Shown: piece after piece, positions 6,460-64,000 of the stretch
Position numbering within the stretch: position 1 is the first letter of the stretch
Layout of the letters: every line of letters starts with the position of its first letter
DNA from: a virus
Taxonomy: Duplodnaviria; Heunggongvirae; Uroviricota; Caudoviricetes
Strand: one strand, 5' to 3'
Virus record (IMG/VR): IMGVR_UViG_3300027963_000034
Coordinates: 32,001-96,000 of that record
DNA length: 64,000 bases
The notes under the pieces: generated by a model
Databases searched by the model: none
What the model saw: only the letters and a program-made list of their open reading frames with translations
What the model was told of the DNA's origin: nothing
Translations under genes and position numbers: made by a program

Positions 6460-6460
6460 T

Positions 6461-7156: not shown

Positions 7157-7157
7157 C

Positions 7158-18517: not shown

Positions 18518-18520
18518 AAC

Positions 18521-21050: not shown

Positions 21051-21051
21051 A

Positions 21052-22434: not shown

Positions 22435-22459
22435 AACTTATTTTTAAAATATATATTGT

Positions 22460-23344: not shown

Positions 23345-23351
23345 AATACAT

Positions 23352-23383
23352 CTAATATACCCAATTTATTTGGATTTACCAAA
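23352..23383 (-). promoter_or_regulatory. Bacteroidota-type promoter upstream of the Cas4-like nuclease/glyco block
   Basis: TTTG-N20-TATATTAG. Confidence 0.6.
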
Positions 23384-33394: not shown

Positions 33395-33422
33395 ATTTTT
33401 TTGTTTTAAATTTTATGTTTGT

Positions 33423-33454
33423 TAAATATACTACTTTTTTTTTATAATACCAAA
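33423..33454 (-). promoter_or_regulatory. Bacteroidota-type promoter upstream of clamp/MTase/polB
   Basis: TTTG-N20-TATATTTA. Confidence 0.65.
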
Positions 33455-34672: not shown

Positions 34673-34676
34673 TAAA

Positions 34677-38167: not shown

Positions 38168-38336
38168 TTTCTTTTTGTTTTATATTTTTATTTTCTTTTA
38201 TATGTTTTGGTTCATAAGGACAATGACGGCACTTATTACCACAACAATAACCTCTTGCCATATGATACTCTGGTGTAAATACCACTTTACCATTTTCCAA
38301 ATAGTATAATGTTTCATCTTTATTATTTAACTTCAC
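38145..38336 (-). CDS. Small Cys-rich protein (DUF5522-like); start uncertain
   Basis: YY.ENG.VVFT..YH..RGYCCGNKCRHCPY. Confidence 0.7.
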   Translation of the reverse strand: MKLNNKDETLYYLENGKVVFTPEYHMARGYCCGNKCRHCPYEPKHIKENKNIKQKENGNSQKV

Positions 38337-40179
38337 ACGCACCTCCAGCACAAGCTACTTCTCCTGATAAATCGGTGTTATCTTCAAGTTCAATAACTTT
38401 ACTTAAGTCAACATCATTTAATGTTTTCATTAGTTCATCATACTTTTCTTTTGTACAATCTTCAAATGGTGCTTGAATGTAAGTTCCACCGTCGTAAGGT
38501 AATACCGAAAGTCCGTTGTAATATTCTTTATTTTCCCACATCCACGCGCCAACTGCATCCCATTCATGTTCTCTAATAGAAATAGTTGCAGATACATTAT
38601 GAGAGTTATTTCCAGTTCTATGACCTGGTTTAATCCATTCACCATGTACTCTTTTAACTCTTTCCAATAATTGGATAGGTGATTCGGTTCTAAAAATTGC
38701 GTTATCTGGTGCTTTTTGTGGAATACCAATTACTGCCGTATCATGTGGTCTAAAATATTCATCTTCTACTAATTCTGGATGATTTAATAATAAGTGAGAA
38801 TATATTGATTCATTTTTACCAACTCTAACTCTTCTAATATAAAAATCATTATGCCAAGCGTGAATACCACTACTAGTCCCCAATGTTAAAGATGTAGTTC
38901 CAGCTGGTTTAACTGTCGTAGTTCTTGCGGAATGGTTAATTCCCATTATATCCGCTAATCTTTTATTTTCTTCTTTAACTACCTTTGCTGCATCTTTCAT
39001 ATTTAATTTCAATACTGCGCCGCTTCCGATGCCTGTCATAGATACACCAATAAGTGCATCCTTTTCAGTTGTTCTTTGCCAGATTGGACGAAGGTAATGG
39101 AAATCGGTATAACCTGCTTGTAATGTTCCGATGAATGATGCTGCTTTAACTCTTGCATTCAAATCATCCTGGTCAACTACATCACTTACATTCACTTCAC
39201 ATAAGTTACAAAATTGGAAAGGTCTTAATGCAATCTCACAACAAGGATTAGTTCCCCAATCTTTATCATTTGATAAATAGATACCAGGTTCACCTGCACC
39301 ACTTGCTTCAATTCGTTTCCAAAGGTCTAAAAAATATGTTTTTGTAATTTTATGTCTCATCAAAACTGCTGAATTATTTGCTCTACCTCTTTGTGGATTT
39401 GTTTCCCACCATGCACCACTCTTACAACTAATCATTTGTTCGTCATTTGCAGAGAACAATGAAATTAATGCAGCTCTACGGATACCACCTGCTAATACTG
39501 CATCTGCAATATGACAAATGATATCATGCACTTCAATCGGTTTTAATTTATCACCGTCTTTGTGTGAATCAAATATACCTTCAATCTTAATCAAGCATTC
39601 TTTTAATGGTTGAGGTCCTGGTGCTTTACCACCTGATGTAATCAATCTTGCACCCTTTGCTCTAATATCTCTAAAATCAAATTGAGGTTTGCTCCCGCCA
39701 AAGAAATACGCTTTAATCAATACCGAAACTGCATCAGCCCATCCTTCGATAGAATCTCCAATAAGGAATCTTCTTGTTTTATCTGGATTTGGTTTTCTAA
39801 TTTCAGGAAGTGCATCAACGTGATGTTTTTGTACTGAATAACCAACACCTGTTCCGCCTAAAAGTAAGAACATGATTTCAGAGAATACTCTCCAATCATC
39901 GGCAGGTGCAAATGCACAATTGTAAATTCTATTTGGACTAATTTCAATTGGTTTACCTGCAAACTGCATTGAACGCATTGATGGTAATACCTTTTTATCA
40001 TATACAAATTTATAATTCTCTCTAATTTCTTCTTCTAATTGTGGGTACTTTTTAATATGCATATCCATATTACGGGTAACCAACTCTTCCCATGTTTCTC
40101 TTCTTTTTAATTCCGGCCTGAATTTCGCGTACTTCATATAGACCGTAATGTCAGATAAAATTCTTTGTGAAATGTCCAT
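38323..40179 (-). CDS. nrdJ: Class II (adenosylcobalamin-dependent) ribonucleotide reductase
   Basis: KYA...RRETW.E, YNC, TNPCCEI, FCNL, TVKPAGT, C-terminal ACAGGACE; no small subunit nearby. Confidence 0.9.
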   Translation of the reverse strand: MDISQRILSDITVYMKYAKFRPELKRRETWEELVTRNMDMHIKKYPQLEEEIRENYKFVYDKKVLPSMRSMQFAGKPIEISPNRIYNCAFAPADDWRVFSEIMFLLLGGTGVGYSVQKHHVDALPEIRKPNPDKTRRFLIGDSIEGWADAVSVLIKAYFFGGSKPQFDFRDIRAKGARLITSGGKAPGPQPLKECLIKIEGIFDSHKDGDKLKPIEVHDIICHIADAVLAGGIRRAALISLFSANDEQMISCKSGAWWETNPQRGRANNSAVLMRHKITKTYFLDLWKRIEASGAGEPGIYLSNDKDWGTNPCCEIALRPFQFCNLCEVNVSDVVDQDDLNARVKAASFIGTLQAGYTDFHYLRPIWQRTTEKDALIGVSMTGIGSGAVLKLNMKDAAKVVKEENKRLADIMGINHSARTTTVKPAGTTSLTLGTSSGIHAWHNDFYIRRVRVGKNESIYSHLLLNHPELVEDEYFRPHDTAVIGIPQKAPDNAIFRTESPIQLLERVKRVHGEWIKPGHRTGNNSHNVSATISIREHEWDAVGAWMWENKEYYNGLSVLPYDGGTYIQAPFEDCTKEKYDELMKTLNDVDLSKVIELEDNTDLSGEVACAGGACEVK

Positions 40180-40343: not shown

Positions 40344-41702
40344 TTATCCCATATTCTCTACATACTTCTTATGTAGTAATTTTTTCTCTAATCCTTCTCC
40401 ATTTTTACTATCTCTAGTTGATGCCATACCATCTATTGATGTCGCTGCAAACACATCCATTGTACCTGTAAATGTATCAATTTTTGCAGGGAATGTTAAA
40501 CCATCAGGACCAAATCTATTTTTAACGATGTGAATACGGCCTGTGTTTGATAATTTATCTTTAGTCTTTCTACTCACACTCATAATGAAATCTGCAGTTT
40601 GTACTTTCTTATATGAATCACCTACCGAATCCGCTCCAATAACTTCGTGGTCTATTGCTGCTCTATTCGTTTGTGTTGCTGTCCAAACCGGGATAAGTGT
40701 TTCACCACTCAAACCTCTTAACTCCTCATATATCCCACCTAATTCAGCATAAAGACCATCCCTGTTGCCATTTCCACTCTTTAATAAATCCGCGTAATCA
40801 ATAATGATAAGTTTTGGTTTAAATCCGGTTTGTTTTATCTTTTCAATATGAGCTGCAATTGTTTTAGCAGATGCAAATTGTGGTGGATAATACTTAATAC
40901 GAACTCTACCTGGAACTTGCTTTACCTTTCTGATAATCTCATCCTTTCTATCTTTTTGGTCAGTTGTTGGGATACCTGTTAAGATTGTAATGTATCTTTG
41001 TCCTACATAACTTTCTGATAATTCCAATGTATAATGTAATACATCAATACCTCTTTCCAATGCAGAACAAGCTATTTTAGATAAGAACCAACTTTTACCG
41101 ATACCCGATGGAGCCATTACTACTCCCAATTCACCGGGGCCTAAACCGCCATCCATTAATTCATCAATTACTTTCCATCCAGTAGGACAAGAATCTCTTT
41201 TAACATTTTCTAATATAGTTTCAAAATTTTCAATAAAATCCAAACCTAAATCAGATTCAACACCCACTTTGGATGCCTTCATCATTGTATCTATAATTTG
41301 TTCGTATTGTCCGTTTTTAAGTAAGTCTACCGATTTGAATAATGCTTCTTTAACCTTTTGGTTTTTACAAAATGTTAAATACTCCTTTTTTACATACGGC
41401 ATATCTTCTGCACCAACCTGTAAATAAACATTCTTTAATTGTTCTACTACCGTCTGTTTTAATCCCTTATCCTCTATTCCCCCAACTTTAATTTTAAACA
41501 CTTCCATTGTAGGAACTGCTCTATACTCATCAAAGTAATGTTGGACTTCACCTATAATCCATTGGTTTGCTTGAGATTCAAAAAATGCAGGTTTTGTAAT
41601 TTCACCGACTTGTTCTAAAAATTTAACATCCGTGATAAGTGCAGCTACAACTTTAGATTGATAACTCTGGCCATATTTGACGAGTGTATCTACTTCTTGC
41701 AT
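40344..41702 (-). CDS. Replicative helicase (gp41/DnaB-like)
   Basis: GGL..GEL, APSGIGKS, TLEL, IIDYAD, TATQ.NR, KNRFG. Confidence 0.95.
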   Translation of the reverse strand: MQEVDTLVKYGQSYQSKVVAALITDVKFLEQVGEITKPAFFESQANQWIIGEVQHYFDEYRAVPTMEVFKIKVGGIEDKGLKQTVVEQLKNVYLQVGAEDMPYVKKEYLTFCKNQKVKEALFKSVDLLKNGQYEQIIDTMMKASKVGVESDLGLDFIENFETILENVKRDSCPTGWKVIDELMDGGLGPGELGVVMAPSGIGKSWFLSKIACSALERGIDVLHYTLELSESYVGQRYITILTGIPTTDQKDRKDEIIRKVKQVPGRVRIKYYPPQFASAKTIAAHIEKIKQTGFKPKLIIIDYADLLKSGNGNRDGLYAELGGIYEELRGLSGETLIPVWTATQTNRAAIDHEVIGADSVGDSYKKVQTADFIMSVSRKTKDKLSNTGRIHIVKNRFGPDGLTFPAKIDTFTGTMDVFAATSIDGMASTRDSKNGEGLEKKLLHKKYVENMG

Positions 41703-41911
41703 TACTTATCTTTTTTCTTTTTGCTTAATTGTTTTTCTGCGATTGTTTTTTCTTGTACTTCTACAACTATTTCTACTTCTTTTTTAGCAGGCCTTCTATC
41801 TGCTTTCCACTCACTTTTTGGAATAAACTTCCATTCACTTGTTGCGTTGTAAGCTTCTTTATCACTTACTCTAATAATGTTTCCTGTTTTTGTACTTTTA
41901 AGACACTTCAT
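41702..41911 (-). CDS. Hypothetical basic protein
   Basis: TG.IIRV...A......W....KSEWK; TAATG-coupled to the helicase gene. Confidence 0.65.
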   Translation of the reverse strand: MKCLKSTKTGNIIRVSDKEAYNATSEWKFIPKSEWKADRRPAKKEVEIVVEVQEKTIAEKQLSKKKKDK

Positions 41912-41933
41912 TGTTGACCTCCATGTTTTTATG

Positions 41934-42260
41934 TTATCTAATAACCATTAATAATTCTGATTCTCTTAATAGAAGGTATTTATTACCACCTACTTTAATT
42001 TCTACTCCCTGATGATATGGTGGAAGAATTACCTCATCACCTACTTTTACACTCATTGGAATTGCTACACCAGCTTGTGTGAATAATCCATCACCAACTG
42101 CTTCTACTTTTGCTCTTTTTACATCTTCTGATTTTGCACTATCCGGAATAATAATTCCATATGCAGTTGTTGAAGCTTCTGCTTCGATTTCCGTTAGAAG
42201 AACTCTATCTCCTAGTGGTTTTGCTAACTTGTCTGCCACGCTTTCTGTTACTTTTGCCAT
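41934..42260 (-). CDS. groES: Co-chaperonin GroES
   Basis: KPLGDRVL, GIIIPD, AVG.G, VKVGD, LLRESE. Confidence 0.93.
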   Translation of the reverse strand: MAKVTESVADKLAKPLGDRVLLTEIEAEASTTAYGIIIPDSAKSEDVKRAKVEAVGDGLFTQAGVAIPMSVKVGDEVILPPYHQGVEIKVGGNKYLLLRESELLMVIR

Positions 42261-42267
42261 AACTTTT

Positions 42268-43326
42268 TTAAAATTTATTTATATGTGAAAATGTTGATTG
42301 TAACCAATCATTTATATCTTTAAACCCATCTAAAACTCCATTTTTTAAACTCGTTTTTAAGAAACTTTGTTTATCAAACTTTGCAGTTGGTTCGTTATAT
42401 CTATCCATAATTTTCATTCGAAGATTACCACTAAATGTTGGTTCTGCTAACTGCATCAATTTACGATTTCTTTCGCAAATTTCCAAATTATTTAAGAATA
42501 ATTCATGTGCTTTTGATTTTTTAGGTAATGTATTTACATAATTAACCATATCGGTAGTATCAACTAATTGGTGTTCTACTAACATTGGAAATGCTTTTAT
42601 AATTGATTTAATACCTAACCCGTTAATACCTGCAACATTGTCGGATTTATCTCCGTCAATCATTCTGAAATTTATAAAATTATGTGGATGAATACCAAAT
42701 TCCTCAACTACTTCTGGAATATTATATATTTTCTTCTTTGATGGTGAATATACACTTACATCTTTATTTACTAATTGAAGAAAATCCTTATCAGAGCTCA
42801 TTATTACAACCTTTTCGTTTTCTTGTCGTAGGGTTGTAGCAATATAAGCCATAACATCGTCTGCTTCAATTCCATCATAAATCATAATGGAAACGGGTAA
42901 TGATGAAAGTAGTTCACCCAATGCAGACATTTGTCTTTTCATTGAGGCACTCTCTTCTTCTGGATTCATTTCAATAGTTGCAGCTCGATTCAATCTCATT
43001 TTGATTTTGTTCTTACCTCTCTCCGATTTGTAACCAGAATATATGTCTTGTCTGCTTTTGTTTCCACCCTTACCATCGAATACTATTACAACTCGTGTTG
43101 GGTTAATTGTACGGATTGCAAAGCCGATACTTTTTAAAGTACCGACTATGCCTCCAATATGGTCACCATTATCGTTAAGATTTGGTGCTGTTGACCAAGA
43201 ACGAATGAAGGTATTAAGACCATCAATAACTAAAGTTTTTGAATTTCTTTGCAAATCTCCAAATCCTTTATGTTCTTCATCTATTTGTTTTAGTATATCT
43301 AAATACTTCTTATTAATCTGACTCAT
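42268..43326 (-). CDS. 5'-3' exonuclease / RNase H (T4 Rnh/FEN-like)
   Basis: IDG.N, VFDG, YK..R, EADD, SSDKD, GDKSDN..G. Confidence 0.93.
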   Translation of the reverse strand: MSQINKKYLDILKQIDEEHKGFGDLQRNSKTLVIDGLNTFIRSWSTAPNLNDNGDHIGGIVGTLKSIGFAIRTINPTRVVIVFDGKGGNKSRQDIYSGYKSERGKNKIKMRLNRAATIEMNPEEESASMKRQMSALGELLSSLPVSIMIYDGIEADDVMAYIATTLRQENEKVVIMSSDKDFLQLVNKDVSVYSPSKKKIYNIPEVVEEFGIHPHNFINFRMIDGDKSDNVAGINGLGIKSIIKAFPMLVEHQLVDTTDMVNYVNTLPKKSKAHELFLNNLEICERNRKLMQLAEPTFSGNLRMKIMDRYNEPTAKFDKQSFLKTSLKNGVLDGFKDINDWLQSTFSHINKF

Positions 43327-44419
43327 TTGCTTCGTCCGTTGTTACTTCAACTTCATCCGAATTGGAATTGTTCTTGTATAATAATATTGTTGCCTCACAA
43401 ATCCTTACATAGATTTGGTCTTTTAGTTCTTGATTTTCAAGCATCTTTGGAAAATCCTTTGATTGAAACTTCATAACTTCGCCACTATCAATGTCGATGT
43501 ATTCATACCAAGCTCCTGCTTGCTTTACAATTTTGGCGTCTTTCATTACTGCTAACCATCCACCATAATTGTCAATACCTCTATCAAAGAAAATGTCAAA
43601 GTCTGCATGTCGTAATGGTGGGCCCATTCGGTTTTTAATAACCTGACAACGAACTTTGATACCTACGATTCTATCACCGGCTTTAAGTTGGCCCATATTC
43701 TTTAATCTCAATCTAACCGAAGCATGAAATGCAAGTGCTTTACCACCGGATGTTGTCCAAGGGTCACCGAACATTGCGTTCATTTTCTGTCTTAATTGAT
43801 TTGTGAATACTAATGCAATTGATTGACGACCAATCATATTGGTAATCTTTCTCATTGCTTTTGAAATGATAATTGCCTTATCAGTTGCGTAACCATCTTT
43901 ATCGTAATCGGCTTCCATCTCTTTCTTTGAAGATGCTGCTGCTACTGAATCGACTACAATTGTAACTAATCTATCTTTGTCTCCTGTTCTAACCTTTTCA
44001 ATAATTGTTTCACATGCTTCAAAAATACCTTCGACGGTGTCAACTGAAACATATAATAGTTTTGAAATATCTACTCCGATTGCTTCTAAATATTCTCTAC
44101 TTACCGCAGTTTCGGTATCAATCAATACGGCTACTCCACCTTTACGTTGTGTTTCCGCAAGAATATGAGCGGAGAGCAGAGATTTTCCACTCTGCTCTAA
44201 ACCCGTAATCTCACATATACGTCCAACCGGGAAGCCACCATAAGGTCTATTAGAGATTGCAACATCCAACATAGCATTACCAGTTGAAATCCAATCTTTA
44301 ACATTGGTAGGAGCATCACCACCTTCATCAGTTAGAAAGTAGGCAATCTTACCATCCTTATTTTGTTTGTTTAATGAATCAGCAAGAATACTTGCTAAAT
44401 CCTCTTCTCTTTTGGCCAT
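43313..44419 (-). CDS. recA: RecA/UvsX recombinase
   Basis: ISTG...LD, G.EQSGKS, IDTE, VDSVAA, FTNQLR, TSGGKAL, KNR. Confidence 0.95.
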   Translation of the reverse strand: MAKREEDLASILADSLNKQNKDGKIAYFLTDEGGDAPTNVKDWISTGNAMLDVAISNRPYGGFPVGRICEITGLEQSGKSLLSAHILAETQRKGGVAVLIDTETAVSREYLEAIGVDISKLLYVSVDTVEGIFEACETIIEKVRTGDKDRLVTIVVDSVAAASSKKEMEADYDKDGYATDKAIIISKAMRKITNMIGRQSIALVFTNQLRQKMNAMFGDPWTTSGGKALAFHASVRLRLKNMGQLKAGDRIVGIKVRCQVIKNRMGPPLRHADFDIFFDRGIDNYGGWLAVMKDAKIVKQAGAWYEYIDIDSGEVMKFQSKDFPKMLENQELKDQIYVRICEATILLYKNNSNSDEVEVTTDEANESD

Positions 44420-44432
44420 TGTAACCTAATTA

Positions 44433-45281
44433 TTAATTGTTAAATAAATCATCAAATGCTGATGCTACATCATCCTTTGCTTTTGGAGCTTCATCCTTTT
44501 CCCAAGGTAAGTCACCAATTTCCTGAGTACCACCTAAATCAGTTGATACCGATGATTGCTTTTGTGCAACTGGTTGTGCTTTTGGTTTCGGTGCTTCTAA
44601 TTCTTCAACAATATCATCGCTTCCAATTGCTGCTGATGGGTTTAACCAATTTTCTAAAACTGACTTTAATTCTGCGTAAGATAACTCCTGATATAATTCA
44701 GTAATTTCTTTTTGACCATCTAACAATTGTTGGATAGCTTCTGGAGAATCTGCTAATTTAGATGTTGCAGGTTTAACTCTGATTGTTGTTGTTGGATAAG
44801 ATGCGTTAGACTCTTCTGCTGACATTACTTCCAATACGATATCTCTACCTGTGTTTGGGTCTGTAATATCTCCGTAATCAGGGTCTGCAATATATCCTAA
44901 AATATCTTGATAAACTGTCTTACCGAATCCCCAGAATTTTACTCCTTCCGATTCTTTACCTCTTACTATAACTGGTACAAAAGTTCTTAACTTTGGTTCC
45001 ATTTTCTTACCTGCTTTCCAATCATCGGTATCACCTGTTCTTTTAAGTTTTTCTGCAAACTCAACGATAGGGTCAGGTCTACCAAATGACATAGGACTCA
45101 AATAAGTTTTGTTGTTAATGTTGTAGTGAAAGTAAAGTTCAATGAAAGGAATGTCTTTGTTGAACTTGTAAGGAACGATTCTCACTTGAGATTTTCCGTT
45201 AGCCGGTTTGTAGATTGAATCCGACTTTTTAGTGTTGTTTTGTAAAGAGCTAAATCTCTTTAATGCCAATGAAATGTCCAT
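44433..45281 (-). CDS. Single-stranded DNA-binding protein (gp32-like)
   Basis: VRIVP, FHY, DPI, FWGFGK.VY, DITD...GRD, acidic FDDLF tail. Confidence 0.88.
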   Translation of the reverse strand: MDISLALKRFSSLQNNTKKSDSIYKPANGKSQVRIVPYKFNKDIPFIELYFHYNINNKTYLSPMSFGRPDPIVEFAEKLKRTGDTDDWKAGKKMEPKLRTFVPVIVRGKESEGVKFWGFGKTVYQDILGYIADPDYGDITDPNTGRDIVLEVMSAEESNASYPTTTIRVKPATSKLADSPEAIQQLLDGQKEITELYQELSYAELKSVLENWLNPSAAIGSDDIVEELEAPKPKAQPVAQKQSSVSTDLGGTQEIGDLPWEKDEAPKAKDDVASAFDDLFNN

Positions 45282-47242: not shown

Positions 47243-47274
47243 CAAATATAGGAAAAATAATTTAATTCTCCAAA
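47243..47274 (-). promoter_or_regulatory. Consensus Bacteroidota -33/-7 promoter
   Basis: TTTG-N20-TATATTTG (exact TAnnTTTG), 4 nt before the ATG. Confidence 0.75.
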
Positions 47275-47669
47275 TTTTGAGTATTAAAAGATTTTAATAC
47301 TTTTGTTGGAATTTTTTTGTAGCCGGTATTGGATGTAGTTAGAATACAATTTCTAAATTCTTCCCAATCAATCATATAAGAATTATCCAACATACCACCT
47401 GTTTTTGACTTAACTACTTCATTTAAAGCGTTAATAGTGTATATTGAATTAGATTGTTTCTTTCTATGTACTAAAATAGTTTTCCATTCGGAAGGGATTG
47501 CATTAGAACCCTTTTCAACATTAAAAGTAATAAATGCTTCTTCAGGTCTTATTTTACTTTCTAAAATAAAAACATTTGGATTGGTCAGAGTATAGTTTGT
47601 TAATATAAAATTAACTGATTTATCTAACTCATCCTTTGTCGTAAATAGGCAAAGTAGTTGTGTGTTCAT
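47262..47669 (-). CDS. Phage hypothetical protein
   Basis: QLLC.F, TILVHRKK..N..YTINALN. Confidence 0.65.
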   Translation of the reverse strand: MNTQLLCLFTTKDELDKSVNFILTNYTLTNPNVFILESKIRPEEAFITFNVEKGSNAIPSEWKTILVHRKKQSNSIYTINALNEVVKSKTGGMLDNSYMIDWEEFRNCILTTSNTGYKKIPTKVLKSFNTQNLEN

Positions 47670-50110
47670 TATGCTTCATCATCGTTTGTATCATCGCTAG
47701 ATGATTGTTTTCTTTTTTCTCCTGCAGCTTTTCTTTGTGCTAATTGGTCCGCCTTTCTAGAGTTTGCTCCGGATGTATCACCATTCTTTTTATTAGCTTC
47801 TGCACATTGTCTTACAAATTCATCATTACATAAAATTTCAAACCCAACAGTCCCTTCAAATCCTTTACCTTTTTGTCTAGCATCAACATATCCAACGGGG
47901 ATTTGTTTTTTACCACCCGCACTAAATACTAATAATGCATCTCCATTTGAATCTTCAACAACTGTCAAACCTTTATTCAATTCATCATAACTATTAACAC
48001 CAAATACGGTCTGTAATGTTTTTGTAGTAACATGTACACCATCTATTAACATAAATTCCGTTCCATCCATACAAACTTTTAATGGAAATGCTTCTGCTAA
48101 TTTTTGCATTACACCTCCTAATAATTCTGGACTATTTGGAATTGCTTTAATTAAAGCATTTCCGGCTTCTTTTGCTATACTATAATGTTGTTCTAATTGT
48201 TTATCAACATCATATCCAGCAGCCTTTGCAACTTCTGCAGCTGCAACACATGCCTTACTTACATATTTAGTTCCTGCTTTTTTAGGATTTAATTTTGTTA
48301 ACCCAGCTGCTACACATTCTTGTGTAACTTCACCATTTGCTTTACCACATTGTTTTACAATTTGATGAGCAGCGGTTGCGAATTTTCTATCAGCTGATGT
48401 TTTATACAAACTATTAACTGCGTTTTCTAATTCTTTTGGTTTTAAATCTACCGATGCATAATATCCTAATTTAAGTGCGGATTTAGTTTGTTTATCGTTA
48501 AACTCTCTAATAGCAGTTACGGCTCGTTTAACATCATCTGGTGCTTTATTAAATGCTTTATCTCTAATAGCTTTAGATTCTTCCGAAACCATTTGAGCAC
48601 CTTGCTGCCAGGTTTTAGCTCCAGTTAATTTTAATATAGTATCTCTAGCCGCTAATCTTTCTTCTTTATTTTTATTACCATCCTGTGCTTTACTCCATAA
48701 TGATTCCAATGCTCTTGTTCTACCTCTCTCACTATCAGTTACATAGTTTAATATAAAATTTTCAACTTCATTTACAGAACCATTAAAGAACATAATATTT
48801 TCATCTTTCTTCAATGAACATCTTTGAGCTTGGGCAGGACCGGCAGGTTTACCATTTTTCAAAGGTTGTACTCTTAAAAGAACATCCGTTGAAAATCCTT
48901 TTTGTGCATATGGTAATCCCAATGCTTCAATATCTTCTCTCTTATCCCAAGCAGCTCCCTGAAATTGCCATCCACCTTTACCATATTTTTCATCCATAGC
49001 CGCATCAAACGATTCACCATGTGATAGGGATGCATCCACCCAACTATCAGTTGCAATTGCAGTATCGGCTGCCAATGCTTTTTTCAAAGCTTTAGGGTCT
49101 TTTGATAATTTATTAAATGCCGCGGCACCCATACTTTGTTTTAACAAATCTAATTTAGTTTCTTGAATTTGTTGTTTTATTACATTTGCTAACGCGAATC
49201 TTTGACGAGGGTCTCTTAATGACATGAAAGCCATTGCCATAACTTCACCAAATTGTGATTGAATTTGTCCTGCACCACCTTGTTTAATTAACTCTGTTAC
49301 AGGTGGTTGTTTACCATCTACTTCGGTATTGATACATCTTTCCAAAAACTTAATGTATTCTTCTGGAAAACCCGCATTTGTTAAATCGTTATGTAATGAT
49401 TTATCAAATATAAATGGCTCGGTTCTTACTCTGGTAGAATGCCCCTCCCCATTTGAACCTCTTTTTGAATAATATTCTTTATCGGAATAACCTTCGGCCA
49501 TATCTTTTTTAGGATATTTTGGATTAGGATTTCCCATATCTGCACTATCACCACTATTTTGTTTTACATATTCTTGCTCAACTTGTCTTAATACTTTATC
49601 ATCTAATTTTCCCAAAACTTGAGGAGCTCTTTTTTCAGGCTGTGTAGGTTCTCCACTTCTTTTTTGTGCTCTGCCATCATCTTTTGGTTGATTGTCGTTT
49701 CCTGGGAATACTTTAGCTCCACCACCGGTTACACCAAATGCGTTTGGTCCTTGTTGTTTAGGTTTATCTGCTGGTTCTTCTGACGAAAGAGTACCACTAG
49801 CTTTTGCAGCCGATAGTTCTTTATCCGTTGGAATATCATGAACTGCAGTATCTACTTTACCAACCGCATATATTGCTCCACTTTGTTTATTTTTTACCCA
49901 AGTTTTACCAGTTGGTGGTGCAACTCTTTCTTCTTTTAAGAATGAATAATATACTCTTGCTTTCTGTGCTATTTCATTTGCATCGGAAATACCATTTTCT
50001 CTTAAAATTTGTTTTAATGTTGTAACTTGTTCCTCATTTGTTAAATCAATAATACCAGTTTTAACTCGGTATTCTAATTCTTTTAGGATTTCTTGAAAAT
50101 TTATTGACAT
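47669..50110 (-). CDS. Large protein (813 aa), possible head-internal protein with restriction-endonuclease-like core
   Basis: Helical N-terminus ending FLKEE, Pro/Gly linker, then QFGE...STD...SLKK. Confidence 0.5.
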   Translation of the reverse strand: MSINFQEILKELEYRVKTGIIDLTNEEQVTTLKQILRENGISDANEIAQKARVYYSFLKEERVAPPTGKTWVKNKQSGAIYAVGKVDTAVHDIPTDKELSAAKASGTLSSEEPADKPKQQGPNAFGVTGGGAKVFPGNDNQPKDDGRAQKRSGEPTQPEKRAPQVLGKLDDKVLRQVEQEYVKQNSGDSADMGNPNPKYPKKDMAEGYSDKEYYSKRGSNGEGHSTRVRTEPFIFDKSLHNDLTNAGFPEEYIKFLERCINTEVDGKQPPVTELIKQGGAGQIQSQFGEVMAMAFMSLRDPRQRFALANVIKQQIQETKLDLLKQSMGAAAFNKLSKDPKALKKALAADTAIATDSWVDASLSHGESFDAAMDEKYGKGGWQFQGAAWDKREDIEALGLPYAQKGFSTDVLLRVQPLKNGKPAGPAQAQRCSLKKDENIMFFNGSVNEVENFILNYVTDSERGRTRALESLWSKAQDGNKNKEERLAARDTILKLTGAKTWQQGAQMVSEESKAIRDKAFNKAPDDVKRAVTAIREFNDKQTKSALKLGYYASVDLKPKELENAVNSLYKTSADRKFATAAHQIVKQCGKANGEVTQECVAAGLTKLNPKKAGTKYVSKACVAAAEVAKAAGYDVDKQLEQHYSIAKEAGNALIKAIPNSPELLGGVMQKLAEAFPLKVCMDGTEFMLIDGVHVTTKTLQTVFGVNSYDELNKGLTVVEDSNGDALLVFSAGGKKQIPVGYVDARQKGKGFEGTVGFEILCNDEFVRQCAEANKKNGDTSGANSRKADQLAQRKAAGEKRKQSSSDDTNDDEA

Positions 50111-50123
50111 CTTTTATCTTTTA

Positions 50124-50426
50124 TTAAAATGAATCACTTACTAATGTATAATCTTTATTTGTTAGAGATTTTTTTGCTTGCTTTAACAAATCATCAACCA
50201 TCTTATCTCTCTTCTTTGCATCTTCTGGAGAAATACTACCATCCTTATCGTGCTGTTTTTTAATTTGTTGTAACTTACGAACGGCATCTTTGTCATCCAT
50301 ATAGATTGCCAATTCAACTGCCGCAGAAGAATGGTCATTATTATCGGTCATTCTACTTACTTTTTTATTAAAAGCTTCGGCTGGGTTATAATATTCTTTT
50401 AAAGGAATAAGGTCTACTAATCTCAT
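50124..50426 (-). CDS. Hypothetical protein, possible head-internal protein
   Basis: MRLVDLIPLKE N-terminus; downstream of an ATATTTATA motif. Confidence 0.55.
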   Translation of the reverse strand: MRLVDLIPLKEYYNPAEAFNKKVSRMTDNNDHSSAAVELAIYMDDKDAVRKLQQIKKQHDKDGSISPEDAKKRDKMVDDLLKQAKKSLTNKDYTLVSDSF

Positions 50427-50459: not shown

Positions 50460-51731
50460 TTAACTTATAACCTTTAAATTGTTATAATTCTCTCCTTCTT
50501 CTATTCGTACCGGAAATCCACCCAACTCCATAATGTCGTTTACGGATTTTAAAATCTCATCTCTTTCAATTGGGTGTGTATCAATAAGAAACGCATCATA
50601 GGTATACAAAATCATTTTACTCATCTTACTACTCAATACTTCCAATACCTCTCTAATTTTGATGTAATTCACTTCAGTCTCTATTGCTTGTAATAAGTAA
50701 GAGAATACTTTTTGTTCGGTTGGAGATTCAATTCTATCAAAGTTAATTTTTCGTTTGTATAAGGGAGTTTCCAAATACCCATTTATAACGAATCTATTAT
50801 ATTGAGATGTTATATATTCCTCAACCTTTTTAAAAAATGGAATCTCTCTCGCCATTTCATCCAAACCACCATATAGATAACGGAATGTCAATAGTTTCGC
50901 TTCTTCCGTTGGTAATCCATAATATTGAGCAAGGTGTTGGTGTGCCGAAATATCCGTTGGAAATTTATAGCCAACTAATCCTCCAATTAAACGAACGTGG
51001 TATGACTCAAAATCAAATTGTAATAAAGTACCATTTGGATGTCTACTAACAAAACATTCTCTACTACCATCCGATTTGTTAAGAGCAGAGTAGTTCACAT
51101 TAAGATGTCTGTTAGATGGTCTACCTGTTATTGTATATGGGTTGTATTGTGTGTAAACAATATCATTTTTTTTGATGTATTTCTCGTCAAAGCTAAAACT
51201 ATCAATAAATTTTTCTCTATCGACTTTTACCCCAGCCCCTTCTAGTTTTCCCAAAGTATTGATTGCGTTTGTATATTTACGATACGATTCATCCGTATTA
51301 CTGATGTTTGGGATTGTCTTTAAGATTTCATACCACTTCATTAAAGGTACACAATCATTCAACTCTTTAAAGTCGTTTCTATACCCTCTATAAACCCCAG
51401 CAACGAACTCATTAAAGATAAATGGTTTACCATACTCTTCAAAATGTGCCCACTCATAATCCAATCCTATTGTGTTTAAATACCTATTACCTAAAACTAA
51501 TGTATTTGAATGAATTATTTTCGATATATCAAATTCATTTAATTTTTTAGCATCTATATGATTTAAATTTATTATACCATCATCACCATTTACATGCCTA
51601 AAATATATAAAGGACAAACGAGTACCAAACGGATGTGCTCTATGTGAGCTCCATACTGGAATAATAAGGTCAATATTTACATTACCCCCTAAAAAAGAAA
51701 ATAGGGTATGTTTATCTTCTATTAGATTCAT
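50460..51731 (-). CDS. Divergent family A DNA polymerase-like protein
   Basis: TGRPSN, motif A DFESYHVR, motif B AK..TF..LYGG, YLLQ, motif C YTYDAF. Confidence 0.8.
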   Translation of the reverse strand: MNLIEDKHTLFSFLGGNVNIDLIIPVWSSHRAHPFGTRLSFIYFRHVNGDDGIINLNHIDAKKLNEFDISKIIHSNTLVLGNRYLNTIGLDYEWAHFEEYGKPFIFNEFVAGVYRGYRNDFKELNDCVPLMKWYEILKTIPNISNTDESYRKYTNAINTLGKLEGAGVKVDREKFIDSFSFDEKYIKKNDIVYTQYNPYTITGRPSNRHLNVNYSALNKSDGSRECFVSRHPNGTLLQFDFESYHVRLIGGLVGYKFPTDISAHQHLAQYYGLPTEEAKLLTFRYLYGGLDEMAREIPFFKKVEEYITSQYNRFVINGYLETPLYKRKINFDRIESPTEQKVFSYLLQAIETEVNYIKIREVLEVLSSKMSKMILYTYDAFLIDTHPIERDEILKSVNDIMELGGFPVRIEEGENYNNLKVIS

Positions 51732-51736: not shown

Positions 51737-51767
51737 ACAATATACTAAAAATATCTGAATTTACAAA
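51737..51767 (-). promoter_or_regulatory. Bacteroidota-type promoter upstream of the PolA-like gene
   Basis: TTTG-N19-TATATTGT, 5 nt before the ATG. Confidence 0.5.
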
Positions 51768-51768
51768 A

Positions 51769-52530
51769 TTATTCTTTCCAATGTTTGTCTCTAATTTCAT
51801 ATACATCTATTGGTTGTCTTTTCATATGTTCTCCTTGTCGAAGATATCCACCCTTTAACATATACCCACTTAATATAGAACGTCTAAATGCGTTTCCATT
51901 ATTTGTATCCGAACCATGTACTAAATGTGAATGTATTAAAAATGCTTGGCCCTTTTTAAGTGTTGCATAAATTTTTGGAAAATTATGCCCTTCTGGCATT
52001 TTACTAGCTTTGCCTCTTTCATTTTTCCAATGACCAGGATTTGAATTAACTCTATTTTCATCAACTTCAATATCTAACAAAGGTAAATAATGAGAACCCT
52101 CAAACGCCCATAGGCCTCCATTACTTTCATCCGATTCGTCTAACGATATAGAAATATTTGCTATCTTATTCCAACCCGCCTGCGAATAAAATCCATCTTG
52201 GTGAGCATCTCTACCTAATTCTCCAGGTGGTTTGAAATATGCCCAAGTTTGTACCCCTTGTATTTCGGAATCCAAAAGTAATTCCATACATTCAATTGCT
52301 TTTGGATGTGCCAATATTTTTTCTACTAATTCCGATTCTTTATGAGGATGCATGTAAGGTTCATACTCTCCCCAAGTTTCTTCCGATTGGTTTCTATTAA
52401 TTCTTAATTTATCCAATTCAGCAATAACATTATCCACTTCAGATTCGGTTAAAATATCAACAATCACGTAACCTTTGTATTTCCAGTCATGCAGCAGTTG
52501 TTCTTTTTCTATTTGTGTAAGATGTTTCAT
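51769..52530 (-). CDS. PhyH-family 2OG-Fe(II) dioxygenase
   Basis: KPPG, HQD, ISLD...NGGL, GSH, HGS..N...R; start moved to ATG 52530. Confidence 0.9.
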   Translation of the reverse strand: MKHLTQIEKEQLLHDWKYKGYVIVDILTESEVDNVIAELDKLRINRNQSEETWGEYEPYMHPHKESELVEKILAHPKAIECMELLLDSEIQGVQTWAYFKPPGELGRDAHQDGFYSQAGWNKIANISISLDESDESNGGLWAFEGSHYLPLLDIEVDENRVNSNPGHWKNERGKASKMPEGHNFPKIYATLKKGQAFLIHSHLVHGSDTNNGNAFRRSILSGYMLKGGYLRQGEHMKRQPIDVYEIRDKHWKE

Positions 52531-52535
52531 ATAAT

Positions 52536-52566
52536 TAAATATACAACTTATTTTCAAATTTACAAA
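52536..52566 (-). promoter_or_regulatory. Bacteroidota-type promoter upstream of the PhyH gene
   Basis: TTTG-N19-TATATTTA, 5 nt before the ATG. Confidence 0.6.
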
Positions 52567-52584: not shown

Positions 52585-52965
52585 TCAACCTTTATGAAAT
52601 TGTAAAATGTTTGGTAAATAAAGTCCTATGTTTTTTAATTTAGCAGATGCTATGTTTATGGAAGCCGTGTTTGAATTATATACTCCTATATCTTCTATAC
52701 TTCCATCATTCTTGTAAACAACTTCTTTTGGTCCTTCAATTCTCCAAAATAATTCAACACCTTTCCAATAAGGATTATGTAAATATGTTTCGTATGTATC
52801 TTTTTTTACTTCAAATATATGACCATGATCGTCATTTGATTTTTGAACAAAATATCTTTTGATAATACCATTAGTATAATCAATTTCATTTGGAGTTGGT
52901 ACAATTGTTTCGGGTATTACAATTGTATGTATTATTTTTTCTTTTATTAAATCATTATATGCCAT
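52585..52965 (-). CDS. Hypothetical protein at the end of the baseplate module
   Basis: P.P...DY..G.I.RYF, W.I.GP, L..YL....QF; start moved to ATG 52965. Confidence 0.6.
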   Translation of the reverse strand: MAYNDLIKEKIIHTIVIPETIVPTPNEIDYTNGIIKRYFVQKSNDDHGHIFEVKKDTYETYLHNPYWKGVELFWRIEGPKEVVYKNDGSIEDIGVYNSNTASINIASAKLKNIGLYLPNILQFHKG

Positions 52966-52970
52966 AAAAA

Positions 52971-55355
52971 TTATTTTATATCCAATACTCTCCATCTAGC
53001 ATCTAGAGTAGTATACCAACCATCTGGATTAATTGCATGTTTCACATTTTCAATTTGAAATGCACCAATTATATTATGTATTTCAGGAACACCATCACAT
53101 AAAAAAAACTCACCACAACTTATACCACTTATACCATCTATAACTAAACTAATTTCTATTGGAGTTAATAAACTTTTATTTTTTTCATAAAAGGCTTTAC
53201 TAACAATATTACCTATAAATTTTTCATCAGTAAAAATTAAAACTTTTTCAGTTCCACCAAGCTTAAATTTTTTAGAGTTGGCATTTATAGTTAATGAAAC
53301 ATCCTGTGGAGCTTGGCTGTTTGTCCCTTTTTGTAATCCTTTTGCAGCATCTTGTGCCGCTTTTTTCATAGTTTTTTCAACCGCTTTTACATCAACATAA
53401 TTTAAACTATAAAATCCGTCTGCATTTTGAGTTGTATAAAAATCAACACTCTCATATGCATTTTTTGGAATACCTAATAAAGAATCGTCTACCGAGCCTG
53501 ATTGTGCGCTTTTAACTTGTGCTATATGTGCATATGCATTAAATAATGTTCTACCTGCAATTGCATCACTCATATTAAATTCATATGTAAATTCCTTAAC
53601 AATTGATTGGACAGTTGTAGGTTTAAATCTATATGGGCCGTCTTTATCAGTTTTTATAGCCTGTGATAGTATATTTGTTCCTTGTTTTAATTTACCATCT
53701 ACAATAAATGATTCCGATTTTCCACCTTCTAATGAACCTATGATAAGCTTCATCATACCAAATGAATTATCGTTTACCATAGCCAATATTGATTCTAAAA
53801 AATCTATATTTGTATATGCTCTTTGCCAAATTTCTTTTACTTTTTCATATGATAAAAATACATTTAATGCGTTTCCTAAAATAACATTATCATTTTTTTC
53901 ATATACTTTTATAAATTTTTCACCAGGGTTTTTTTTATTTGAATCATTATATTTTTCATTTTCAATATATAATTCATCGACTTTTAAATTAAATTGTAAT
54001 CCATTAATAGTACAATCCGTCTTTTCAATATTACCTTTACTATCTGTTGATAATACAATTGTATTATTTTTTACATTTTTTATAATTTTAGGTAATTGTC
54101 CAGGAAATATAATATTTTCATTTGCAGATATCAAATTATTAGAAGAATTTGCCAATATTATTGAACTTTTACCACCACCTTTATTATCGGTATAAAATTG
54201 TTGTTTACCTATATCTAAAAATTTGCTATCAACTATTGAAGGTTTTGTTTTAGATATATAGTTTAAAATCTTATCAATTACAAATCCTAATGTAATATAT
54301 GGTTTTTTTGATAAAGATTCATATGCTTTATTATCGTTTGTAATACCCCAATTAAAAAAATGCTTTTCATCATCTTTTTTTGTAACAATTGTAGATAAAT
54401 CTGGTAAATTAAAATCAGATTCTATTTGATTTATCCAGGTATCAAACATCATAGGATTAATTGTCGGTCCTTTTGTTTTACTATTAGTTGAAGTTGTAGA
54501 TTTTGGAATGGCTCTTGAAACCTCATTACCTGCAGTTATTTTAAAACTAACAACATACGTTCCATTATCTTGAATAGAATATGTATAATCTAAAACTTTT
54601 CCTGCAATTTGTTCATATGTTCCTCTAGATTCTTCAACTCTTTTGTAATATTTTCTAAGTGATTCAATATCACCAACAGACAAATCTGCAAAATTTGTAC
54701 AAAATGTATCATATTTTGATTTATCTATAATTACATTTGCTAATGATATATCAGTTTGCGCTCCTATACTTTGCTGATATGTTGAATTGTTACCATATCT
54801 TAAATCTACATATTCTTTTCTTATATTTGCGTATAAAGATTGATTATTTCCAAATTCTAATAAAATATTCATTCCAGGTTTCAAATAAAACAATTCAAAC
54901 ATTTCTAGTTGTTTTAATGAAAATAATCTAACATTAATAGTTGCAATTTTTAATGCGTTTCCAACACCATCGGTATCAATTTCTATATTTTCGATTATTG
55001 GATTTGGTATTCCTCTATTACTCTCACCACTAACTAATATTTTTTTACCAGTAAAGTCTGTACCAATGTAAGATGGGCCAGTTGTTGCGTATGCATTTTC
55101 AGGTGTTTGTACTTCGTTTGTAATTATACACCCCTGATATCCTTTTGATGCATCTGGATTTTTTATAATATCATCAAAAATATCAGCTCTTTCTTTTAGG
55201 CTTAATTTTTTATTATCAGTTTGCTGTACTACAAGAGCCGGAGAGGTTAGTATAACCCATGGAGTTTTAAACATAGCACTTTCTACTAGTTTTTCTCTAT
55301 TTAAAAATATTTCTTTAACCCAACTTTTTAAATCAGATATAAATAATCCCGCCAT
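52971..55355 (-). CDS. Baseplate hub-like tail protein
   Basis: LY.KPG.NILLEFG; C-terminal P.EISL.IDGISGI..G..F, F.I..V.H.I....W.T; follows the gp53/LysM-like gene. Confidence 0.6.
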   Translation of the reverse strand: MAGLFISDLKSWVKEIFLNREKLVESAMFKTPWVILTSPALVVQQTDNKKLSLKERADIFDDIIKNPDASKGYQGCIITNEVQTPENAYATTGPSYIGTDFTGKKILVSGESNRGIPNPIIENIEIDTDGVGNALKIATINVRLFSLKQLEMFELFYLKPGMNILLEFGNNQSLYANIRKEYVDLRYGNNSTYQQSIGAQTDISLANVIIDKSKYDTFCTNFADLSVGDIESLRKYYKRVEESRGTYEQIAGKVLDYTYSIQDNGTYVVSFKITAGNEVSRAIPKSTTSTNSKTKGPTINPMMFDTWINQIESDFNLPDLSTIVTKKDDEKHFFNWGITNDNKAYESLSKKPYITLGFVIDKILNYISKTKPSIVDSKFLDIGKQQFYTDNKGGGKSSIILANSSNNLISANENIIFPGQLPKIIKNVKNNTIVLSTDSKGNIEKTDCTINGLQFNLKVDELYIENEKYNDSNKKNPGEKFIKVYEKNDNVILGNALNVFLSYEKVKEIWQRAYTNIDFLESILAMVNDNSFGMMKLIIGSLEGGKSESFIVDGKLKQGTNILSQAIKTDKDGPYRFKPTTVQSIVKEFTYEFNMSDAIAGRTLFNAYAHIAQVKSAQSGSVDDSLLGIPKNAYESVDFYTTQNADGFYSLNYVDVKAVEKTMKKAAQDAAKGLQKGTNSQAPQDVSLTINANSKKFKLGGTEKVLIFTDEKFIGNIVSKAFYEKNKSLLTPIEISLVIDGISGISCGEFFLCDGVPEIHNIIGAFQIENVKHAINPDGWYTTLDARWRVLDIK

Positions 55356-60927: not shown

Positions 60928-61153
60928 CTATTTTCGTCTAACTTTAGAACTTGCTCCTTTTGATTTATTTACTTGCTCTATTTGTTCTGATTCGGATTTT
61001 TTAACTCTAACCAATTCGTTCCAATAAAATTCTCTTAATTTAATTGACATATAATATACGTCATTCCATGTGAAACCACCATTGGAATTATATATTAATT
61101 GAAAAATCTTTTGATGTAAAGCTATGCTATAATCAGTCGATAGGATAAAAAAA
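60928..61153 (-). CDS. gp51-like tail chaperone C-terminal module, probably expressed by frameshift
   Basis: Y...LH..IF.L.Y...GGFTW.DVY.M...LR.FY; no ATG before the family-like part; overlaps the upstream gene at a T7 run. Confidence 0.6.
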
Positions 61154-61954
61154 GTCAACCCCGAATGGGATTCTGAGAGCCTCCTCCTCACCACTAGCAG
61201 TTGTATATTTGAATGTTAGGTTCAAATCAGGAGTTATTGAATTTGCATATTTTCGAAGTGCTTTAGAATCACCTGCCAATAAACCATTTGTAACAAAATT
61301 GCTTATATGGCCGTAATCTCTAATACCATTTACTTCAACAATCTGTCTCCTATATCTTGCAGTAATTTCACCGGATGTTTTTGTTATTTTTTCAATAGCC
61401 TCAACATCCTTACTGATTGCAATTTCATCACCATGTGATAAGAATTTAAATTTAATAGGAGTTTTTGAAATAGGTAAAACAAATTCATATTCATTTTTTC
61501 TATTTAAAATTTCCTTATTTAATTCTTTTGTTTGTATTTGTGAAAGGTCAATTTTAACATGAGTTGGTTCGCCTGTTTCTGGGTCATCAATCGTTACATC
61601 ATATTCTGCACCAAAAGCCAACATACGAGATGCTACTAATATTGCATTCTTATCACCTACTAAAATATCATTTATATTAACTCCAGGCTCTACTACGATA
61701 GATTCCAACATTTTATTTATATGTTCGTTTCTTCTTATTAGATTTATAGAAGTTAAAATATCTTCTTCTTTTGCAGTTAATAACTTTATTTCAATACTAC
61801 CTTTTGATAAAGGATGATTTTCTGGATAACATAATCCTTCCGATGGAAGTGAAATTATCTCTGTTGCAAATGGGAATGTTTTTGGTAATGCAGTTGGATA
61901 TGCAGTTGGTGTGATACCACCTCTTGTAACTTGTTGTTCAATGTTTTGTTCCAT
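61133..61954 (-). CDS. gp26-like baseplate hub / tail assembly chaperone
   Basis: LPSEG..YP, TAKEEDIL, GD.NAIL..SR...FG..Y, ends DFFYP. Confidence 0.8.
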   Translation of the reverse strand: MEQNIEQQVTRGGITPTAYPTALPKTFPFATEIISLPSEGLCYPENHPLSKGSIEIKLLTAKEEDILTSINLIRRNEHINKMLESIVVEPGVNINDILVGDKNAILVASRMLAFGAEYDVTIDDPETGEPTHVKIDLSQIQTKELNKEILNRKNEYEFVLPISKTPIKFKFLSHGDEIAISKDVEAIEKITKTSGEITARYRRQIVEVNGIRDYGHISNFVTNGLLAGDSKALRKYANSITPDLNLTFKYTTASGEEEALRIPFGVDFFYPID

Positions 61955-62592: not shown

Positions 62593-64000
62593 TTATCCGT
62601 TAAAACTTGCGCCAGTTGGTAAGATGTTGAAATCAATTTGAATAAATTCCGCTGTCTTTGTTGGTTGTAAGTAGATAGCTCCTTTTAAAATGTTTCTATC
62701 AATTACATCTGGTGTGTTGTTTGAATCGTCCATAATTACTTTGAAAGCGTATAAACCTTGTCTACTTTGTATTCCACTTAAATAAGGGTTTACAATGTTT
62801 AAGAATTTAGTTCTAGTTTCTGCTGAATTTTGTTCGAATACTAAATATCTTGATGTAGATGCGATGTACTTTCTAACAGTCAATAATAATCTTCTTACGT
62901 TGATTCTATCTAATGCAGATGGTTTATCTTGTAATGTTTTTTGTCCAAATACCACAATACCTTGTCCTGGGAATTGTACAATTGGATTTACTTTACCTTC
63001 ATATAAATCATCTTTTTCAGATTGAGATAATCTATCTAATACACTAACTGCTCCTACTAATCCACCTCTATTCAAACCTGCTGGTGCGAACCATTCTCCT
63101 GCAACATTGTCGTTTGCCGCAAATACTCCAGGTAATAATACTGATGGTGGGACTGTTATTAATTTGTTTGTGTTTAAATCAATTGTTTTAATCCAAGGAT
63201 AGTAAACTGCTGCGTAGTTTGAATCAACTCCTTGTGCTTGTGTAATAGTTGCTGATAATGATGTTGTTGAGTTACCTGCATCTCCAATGAAGAATGCATC
63301 TGCTCTTTGTTCAACCATATCTAATATTGAAGTCCAAACTGAACTATGGTCAGCTCTATTAACATGCGGTGCAATTACCATATTGATATCATATTCATCA
63401 GCGTTTGATAATGCTGCAATATGTTTTTGATATGCCGCCTTACCTGCTGTTGTAGCTGGGTCTAAATCCGCTGCATTATTGTTTGGTGCAAACCCGTCAA
63501 ATCCTTCTTGGAATGCTACAACAAATTGTCTTTTTGAAACATCAGTTGATACATTTGAAGTTAAACTTAATCCGCAAATAGTATCTAATGAGAATACTGC
63601 ATTTGAACCATTACCTGCAGATGCTGGAATTGGTTTCATATAGATTTTGTTATCTTCATTGTTGTCTAAATCAATACCACTATATTTTGTAGAATCCGTT
63701 ACTGAACCCGTTGAGAATGTTACTCTTGGAACCAAATTTGCGTAAGTTGTTGCAGTTACTGCTTCCGATTGTCCTGCTGCTCTTATTGGTAATTTGTATG
63801 CTGCGTGTGCAAATGGTACTGCTTGAACTGGTGCTTGTTCGTTTAAGTTTGTAATTCTAATATATTTTGAATTATTAACCCAATCTCCAATTTCTGTAAT
63901 TTTACCAGTTGTTGCGTTGATTGTTCTTTTTCTATCACCAATTACTCTACTAATATAGTTTGGAGAATTAGGGTCTAAATTTACGTTTGCAAATGTTTCA
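62593..64000 (-). CDS. Tail sheath protein (gp18-like); 5'-truncated by the window edge
   Basis: Frame is open to the window end (ETFANVNLDPNSPNYISRVIGD); YYPW, WFAPAGLNRG, GQKTL, RINVRRL, FEQN, P.KTAEFI. Confidence 0.95.
   Translation of the reverse strand, partial: ETFANVNLDPNSPNYISRVIGDRKRTINATTGKITEIGDWVNNSKYIRITNLNEQAPVQAVPFAHAAYKLPIRAAGQSEAVTATTYANLVPRVTFSTGSVTDSTKYSGIDLDNNEDNKIYMKPIPASAGNGSNAVFSLDTICGLSLTSNVSTDVSKRQFVVAFQEGFDGFAPNNNAADLDPATTAGKAAYQKHIAALSNADEYDINMVIAPHVNRADHSSVWTSILDMVEQRADAFFIGDAGNSTTSLSATITQAQGVDSNYAAVYYPWIKTIDLNTNKLITVPPSVLLPGVFAANDNVAGEWFAPAGLNRGGLVGAVSVLDRLSQSEKDDLYEGKVNPIVQFPGQGIVVFGQKTLQDKPSALDRINVRRLLLTVRKYIASTSRYLVFEQNSAETRTKFLNIVNPYLSGIQSRQGLYAFKVIMDDSNNTPDVIDRNILKGAIYLQPTKTAEFIQIDFNILPTGASFNG

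Follow-up and report, generated by a model that had tools for sequence, protein, structure and literature searches.

We examined a 64,000-nucleotide stretch of a tailed-phage genome (Caudoviricetes; IMG/VR record IMGVR_UViG_3300027963_000034, positions 32,001 to 96,000; hereafter the window) and found that one of its genes, which encodes a family-A DNA polymerase of 423 amino acids (aa), is divPolA1, a published kind of protein. Its nucleotide pocket is unlike that of any classified PolA, with a histidine at the steric gate, Tyr or Thr at the position of the O-helix Arg, a motif C of YD[S/A], and a family-specific Glu351. The original prediction, made by eye against Escherichia coli Pol I, had described a short second polymerase with a His gate and had proposed a specialized nucleotidyltransferase rather than a replicase. 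The gene is accessory to a full-length PolB encoded in the same window, and we lean, with modest confidence, toward a non-proofreading, low-processivity DNA polymerase that would carry out short-patch synthesis beside the PolB replicase.

divPolA1 was described by Chase, Yutin, Koonin et al. (2024, Virol J 21:200). There, it is a divergent PolA encoded beside a regular polymerase of family A, B, or C, with 14 phages listed and gene 1 of Flavobacterium phage vB_FspM_immuto as the type example; it is divPolA1, not the regular polymerase, that has a conserved replication context, while the regular polymerase varies in both family and context. The window protein matched immuto gene 1 in tblastn (6e-36) and BLASTP (7e-44, 33% identity over 315 aa) searches, and the two share the corresponding motifs DFDGYHLR, AKQINF..YG, and YTYDAF. 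Beyond homology, the window gene has the truncated thumb, the exonuclease domain with replaced aspartates, the palm catalytic residues, the coexisting regular polymerase (PolB), and the conserved downstream replication array of divPolA1. Like its immuto counterpart, it is a protein of ~420 to 440 aa with a cut thumb, replaced exonuclease acidic residues, retained palm aspartates, and GroES nearby. The published trait places a chaperonin near the regular polymerase; here, GroES (Cpn10, 5e-23) lies ~11 kb from PolB, within the divPolA1-side module. Unlike immuto, the window belongs to a different, larger-genome lineage, with relatives on contigs of up to ~245 kb, and has genes for 813-aa and 100-aa proteins inserted after divPolA1. 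According to the same 2024 paper, divPolA2 of the barbaviruses is also a second divergent PolA beside PolB that lacks a normal thumb.

The invariant His gate, the Tyr that replaces the O-helix Arg, the size of the family, and a linked gene of ~130 aa are apparently new. The term "steric gate" occurs zero times in Chase et al. 2024, where neither the His gate, nor the loss of the O-helix Arg, nor the linked small gene is taken up. In the 2023 reclassification of family A (PMC10201439), the gate position (A2) is highly conserved and labeled in all 19 subfamilies, B3 is the most variable position, and none of the clusters corresponds to the divPolA1 family. We found no paper in the literature on Microcystis phage Mel-JY01, the closest cultured relative.

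The relationship to the Klenow fragment was reached with the family profile only, single-sequence searches of the window protein being weak. Pfam DNA_pol_A (PF00476) gave 24.5 bits on the query alone, below the gathering score of 34.3; phrog_17 ("DNA polymerase") matched with an E value of 1e-9; and a single-sequence phmmer search against the PDB returned no match. Many relatives of the window protein carry a precomputed PF00476 match. The family profile found the Klenow fragment with an E value of 1.6e-12, and global hhalign of the profile against Klenow (translated E. coli polA) gave a probability of 98.2% (E = 3e-13). The resulting residue map bore out every Pol I equivalence that had been proposed by eye, and the open reading frame (ORF) translation contained motifs A, B, and C exactly as first quoted (DFESYHVR, TEEAKLLTFRYLYG, and YDA). 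In this map, Klenow E710 corresponds to H245, R754 to T275, K758 to K279, F762 to F283, Y766 to Y287, and H881-D882-E883 to Y378-D379-A380; further equivalences are H734 to H264, R668 to R204, and Q849 to Q348. Family-A enzymes reject ribonucleotides through the Glu710 position. The window protein thus has the motif A and C aspartates, TGR Arg, and O-helix Lys and Tyr of the Klenow fold, whereas, set against the canonical family-A motifs (Czernecki 2023), His245 stands in place of the gate Glu, T275 in place of the O-helix Arg, and Tyr-Asp-Ala in place of the His-Asp-Glu of motif C. Relative to Pol I, the family changes Arg754 to Thr or Tyr and Glu883 to Ala or Ser, has fingers shorter by ~35 residues, and places its Glu351 at the position of Klenow Ala852.

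The two ends of the protein differ from Pol I as well. All conservation counts given here refer to 130 aligned full-length representatives, each 30 to 45% identical to the query. Approximately 145 N-terminal residues align to the 3'-5' exonuclease domain, with its ligands replaced: D355 by P25 (Pro in 96 of 130), E357 by W27, D424 by G81, Y497 by I136, and D501 by I140. The G81 position is Asp or Asn in many relatives, and the N-terminal domain still matches DnaQ-type exonucleases. This exonuclease-type domain had been missed in the original prediction. So had the truncation of the thumb, where 87 Klenow residues have no counterpart and a 17-residue stub stands instead. The C terminus ends like that of Klenow, with no visible clamp-binding tail.

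The predicted structure agreed with this assignment. Pol I-type enzymes and other DNA polymerases led the structural ranking of the divPolA1 model (Mycobacterium smegmatis Pol1, 23.3; Klenow, 22.7; DpoZ, 22.4; G20c Pol I, 22.3; Pol nu, 21.6; T7 DNA polymerase, 20.2; Pol theta, 18.7), and RNA polymerases came low (yeast mitochondrial, 9.8; T7, 8.2; N4 RNAPII, 8.0). Superposition on Klenow aligned 411 residues at a root mean square deviation of 3.3 Å (model residues 1 to 420 on chain residues 330 to 928). A T7-like single-subunit RNA polymerase is disfavored by the place of such enzymes in the model-based ranking and by the retained Phe283/Tyr287 pair. The eukaryotic family-A repair enzymes Pol nu and Pol theta differ from divPolA1 in that their thumb is complete and bears insertions and that both the steric-gate Glu and the O-helix Arg are retained; neither is closely related to divPolA1 in sequence (profile E value for Pol theta, 0.01 to 0.05).

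The unusual residues are fixed across a large family. We recovered 1,031 homologues of the window divPolA1 among clusters at 90% identity and 982 homologous clusters at 50% identity, 509 of which fell below 1e-30; the 14 published genomes thus understate the family by about two orders of magnitude. Nearly all members are 420 to 460 aa long, and they reside on phage-like contigs of up to ~245 kb from freshwater and marine environments. Six residues were invariant in the representatives, including both catalytic aspartates that had been judged to be retained (D240 and D379) together with R204, K279, E351, and Y378. The original prediction had left the conservation of the His gate and of the YD in motif C to an alignment of homologues, and both proved conserved, with H245 in 128 of 130 representatives and YD in all of them. 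Four further residues were nearly invariant (Q348 in 129, Y287 in 128, F283 in 126, and E353 in 124). At position 275, which corresponds to Klenow R754, Tyr was found in 92 of 130, and Arg was not among the four commonest residues; position 380 was Ser in 107, Ala in 19, and Gly in 4. Among close relatives, the median pairwise ratio of nonsynonymous to synonymous substitutions (dN/dS) was 0.158, and no pair exceeded 0.20. Together, the low dN/dS and the conserved residues indicate that the unusual residues are fixed features under purifying selection. A decaying pseudogene was rejected on the same dN/dS (0.16) and the conserved length. We also rejected the reading that the gene is a piece, split or fused, of a larger PolA, given the uniform length of the homologues, among which "longer" and "shorter" classes were not searched separately. 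In one locus (L062; IMGVR_UViG_3300027756_001334), the match to divPolA1 is confined to its first 82 residues (79% identity), and no small neighbor gene is found in 10 kb downstream; the copy may have been rearranged or truncated.

The genes that accompany divPolA1 are also conserved. The downstream order SSB-RecA-FEN-DnaB-RNR is the same in immuto, in Mel-JY01, and in L077, a metagenomic locus whose divPolA1 is only 37% identical to that of the window. The full PolB noted in the original prediction was recovered by Pfam and PHROG searches; it is accompanied by a clamp loader and a clamp-like gene, and the window encodes gp44-like and gp62-like clamp-loader subunits, a PCNA-like protein, and a dUTPase. 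Mel-JY01 also has a PolB, 49% identical to that of the window, whereas immuto has none and carries a second PolA of 777 aa beside GroES/GroEL. Among these phages, then, the short enzyme is constant and the replicase is variable.

A small gene is linked to divPolA1. Homologues of the window's 135-aa protein (E values of 1e-17 to 1e-30) are encoded directly downstream of divPolA1 in immuto, Mel-JY01, and three other loci (L059, L060, and L080), and 2.2 kb downstream in L077. The spacing is 1.7 to 4.3 kb in close relatives versus 48 to 101 bp in distant lineages, and the gene lies on the same strand as divPolA1 in every examined locus with enough downstream DNA. The protein has 905 homologues with an invariant VHRKK-SN-YTINALN core; it belongs to no Pfam or PHROG family, and its fold has no informative match. 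Its model (predicted local distance difference test score, 89) shows an alpha+beta fold that contains two beta-alpha-beta-beta units but lacks an OB barrel. Prediction of a complex between divPolA1 and the 135-aa protein gave an ipSAE interface score of 0.00 in two runs without controls, which carries no weight either way. In the window, the two genes are separated by those for the 813-aa and 100-aa proteins, neither of which had a Pfam or PHROG match. L077 has a 733-aa gene at the equivalent place, and the insert measures 1.7 to 4.3 kb among close relatives, so that this interval looks like a variable slot within a conserved module.

divPolA1 is very probably catalytically active. It is a Klenow-fold enzyme whose proofreading domain has become an inactive scaffold and whose thumb is a stub, with an intact two-aspartate palm and a nucleotide pocket rewired in a fixed way. 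As part of a conserved SSB-RecA-FEN-DnaB module, it would most likely close the gaps that the separate FEN leaves when Okazaki fragments mature, extend recombination intermediates made by RecA, or perform lesion-tolerant synthesis, and so would be the functional equivalent of a split, proofreading-free Pol I or of a Pol nu/theta-like enzyme. This accessory, short-patch role is the one that best matches the fold, the inactive exonuclease domain, and the constant association of the gene with SSB, RecA, FEN, and DnaB. It also matches the distributive behavior expected of a thumb-truncated Pol I (Minnick 1996, as cited in PMC10061031). Several points weigh against it. The lost R754 and Glu883 are both important for Klenow catalysis, and activity could be weak or altered. 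T4-type replisomes normally have the replicase fill primer gaps, and it is not evident why a second enzyme should be needed for this. The conserved replication context that Chase et al. report for divPolA1 rather than for the regular polymerase leaves room for a more central role. Finally, plain gap filling leaves the invariant His gate unexplained. His is close to Glu in size, and sugar discrimination could be kept, loosened, or altered. An alternative, which we regard as unlikely, is that selectivity for sugar or base has changed and that the His gate, together with the losses of the O-helix Arg and Glu883, admits ribonucleotides or modified nucleotides that are poor substrates for the replicase. 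T7 RNA polymerase has HDS at the motif C position, beside which the YD[S/A] of divPolA1 can be set. The fixation of His245 where all 19 PolA subfamilies keep a highly conserved, labeled residue would also speak for altered selectivity, as would the DNA-modification genes of divPolA1 phages: immuto encodes the 7-deazaguanine pathway, and the window carries several methyltransferases along with a radical SAM enzyme and glycosyltransferases.

By analogy with the CCPol-MP (PolA-SSB) primases of SCCmec and other mobile elements of Bacillota (Bebel 2020; Rice 2023), divPolA1, perhaps with its ~130-aa neighbor, might instead start DNA or RNA chains de novo for DnaB at origins or D-loops. CCPol is likewise a truncated, short-thumb PolA followed by a small protein and then a helicase; de novo priming comes from the small OB-fold protein encoded just downstream, and the shortened last thumb helix has been argued to make room for the initiating triphosphate (Rice 2023; PMC10061031). 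In divPolA1, the thumb is cut by ~87 residues, the small gene is tightly linked and adjoins divPolA1 in the ancestral arrangement, and DnaB is in the same array. However, the exonuclease-like domain of divPolA1 is complete in fold rather than truncated, the small neighbor is predicted to be alpha+beta rather than an OB fold, and the helicase is of DnaB type and four or more genes away, with no D5/COG3378 helicase next door. Moreover, the primase that the original prediction suggested looking for was found, in relatives rather than in the window's own genome: DnaG-type primases (Zn ribbon, DNAG_N, and Toprim) are encoded by immuto (gene 179), by Mel-JY01 (182020-183003), and, as a 313-aa ORF with the same three domains, by close relative G002, whose divPolA1 is 76% identical to that of the window. 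No primase was found in the 64-kb window, which covers only approximately a quarter of the genome, and AEP/Prim-Pol PF09250 had no match in five related records. A primer-making role is therefore doubtful, and a primase or RNA polymerase function is disfavored. We consider it very unlikely that divPolA1 is the true replicative polymerase, working with processivity partners of its own while the swappable regular polymerase serves otherwise. Its context is constant while, according to Chase et al., the family and context of the regular polymerase differ among related phages; yet without proofreading and almost without a thumb, it is a poor candidate for copying genomes of ~160 to 245 kb, and it is PolB that sits with the clamp loader and clamp-like gene. 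Least credible of all is a catalytically inert scaffold that keeps the polymerase fold only to bind DNA or protein. The lost R754 and E883 equivalents and the subthreshold Pfam score are compatible with it, but even between deeply diverged members the metal-binding Asp pair, O-helix Lys, TGR Arg, Tyr287, and Gln348 vary little or not at all, a pattern to be expected of catalysis rather than of a scaffold. As a more speculative and improbable idea, divPolA1 and the ~130-aa protein may form a two-subunit enzyme whose rewired pocket gives a chemistry unlike that of any characterized family-A DNA polymerase. If so, candidates would include ribonucleotide or mixed-sugar synthesis and de novo initiation at recombination or origin structures, and the pair would have arisen independently as the phage analogue of the CCPol-MP primase-polymerases and would occur across a very large group of aquatic myophages. 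Of the specialized nucleotidyltransferase first proposed, the idea of an undecayed accessory polymerase stands, and the option of primer synthesis is weakened by the DnaG-type primases of relatives.

The promoter-like motif TTGTAA-N16-TATATT, which lies just 5' of the divPolA1 start codon, was enriched in the window. With at most one mismatch, there were 14 sites against 3.7 expected, a count found in 0 of 100 shuffles. Minus-strand sites are at 1455, 23354, 36458, 45353, 51739, and 52538, and the motif occurs directly upstream of several genes, among them those for gp32, divPolA1, PhyH, and a PD-(D/E)XK nuclease. It is a candidate phage early or middle promoter, and the motif match hints that divPolA1 is coexpressed with genes of replication and repair and not with the late genes. 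A generic scan for sigma-70 promoters and terminators around divPolA1 showed no enrichment over shuffles, and the T4 late-promoter word TATAAATA was not enriched in the window (22 sites versus 19.8 expected). Because the annotated TTG start of the PhyH gene overlaps the promoter-like motif, its true start is probably an internal ATG (MKHLTQ...). The gene for the 136-aa protein farther upstream follows large genes that are probably structural, and it marks where the tail and baseplate module ends. Elsewhere, a dense set of modification-type genes occupies 1..25413 and 31104..37868 of the window (minus strand). Besides the members in Table 1, it holds several glycosyltransferases, a GHMP kinase, a HAD/nucleotidyl-transferase fusion, and a C-methyltransferase, and these genes may serve modification of DNA or of surface sugars.

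TABLE 1 Features of divPolA1 and its surroundings, in window coordinates
Feature	Position	Strand	Basis or remark
divPolA1-type short family-A polymerase, 423 aa (P0001)	50460..51731	-	Real ORF
N-terminal exonuclease-like domain, residues ~1-145	51297..51731	-	Catalytic ligands replaced
Thumb stub, residues 171-187	51171..51221	-	In place of ~100 Klenow residues; 87 within 559-661 unmatched
TGRPS motif (Klenow TGRLS)	51114..51128	-	R668 = R204, 130/130
Motif A DFESYHVR, residues 240-247	50991..51014	-	D240 catalytic; steric-gate His245, codon 50997..50999
Motif B/O-helix TEEAKLLTFRYLYG, residues 275-288	50868..50909	-	K279, F283, Y287, G288 retained; R754 position is T275
Motif 6 region KVFSYLLQAIETE	50673..50711	-	Q348 (= Q849); family-specific E351, E353
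Motif C YTYDA, residues 376-380	50592..50606	-	D379 catalytic; Y378 for His881; A380 for Glu883
Promoter-like TTGTAA-N16-TATATT	51739..51766	-	Motif match
813-aa and 100-aa genes between divPolA1 and small gene	47669..50426	-	
Conserved ~130-aa protein (135 aa here), candidate divPolA1 partner	47262..47669	-	Homology and linkage
Downstream replication/recombination array, gp32 to DnaB	40344..45281	-	Conserved
gp32 SSB	44433..45281	-	Pfam
RecA	43313..44419	-	Pfam
FEN 5'-3' exonuclease	42268..43326	-	Pfam
GroES	41934..42260	-	Cpn10; between FEN and DnaB
DnaB helicase	40344..41702	-	Pfam
RNR	38323..40179		Pfam
PolB, full-length, proofreading, presumed replicase	28540..31095	-	Pfam DNA_pol_B 1.7e-35, exo1 2.7e-24; phrog_262 1.3e-180
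PhyH-type 2-oxoglutarate/Fe(II) dioxygenase	51769..52557	-	Pfam 5.3e-19; directly upstream of divPolA1 in the window's clade only
136-aa protein	52585..52995	-	Conserved just upstream of divPolA1 in Mel-JY01, L077, L079; E 1e-9 to 1e-13
N6/N4 DNA methyltransferase-like proteins (two or three)	31104..32675, 33455..34708, 34677..35906	-	
GNAT	35897..36424	-	
Asparagine-synthase-type amidotransferase	36411..37868	-	
Radical SAM enzyme	24226..25413	-	
T4 baseplate protein	61133..61954		
Tail sheath	62593..63735		

For the window itself, the outcome is mostly clarifying: the finding is real, but proteins of this kind have been published before. With a fixed His at the position that rejects ribonucleotides and a lost O-helix Arg, divPolA1 offers a naturally occurring variation on an active site that has been studied in great detail, and as a small, thumbless, exonuclease-free enzyme it may make a useful scaffold. 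The linked small gene provides a concrete candidate partner. For the phages that carry it, divPolA1 stays while the main replicase is swapped among families A, B, and C, which makes it a fixed component of their replication and recombination module.
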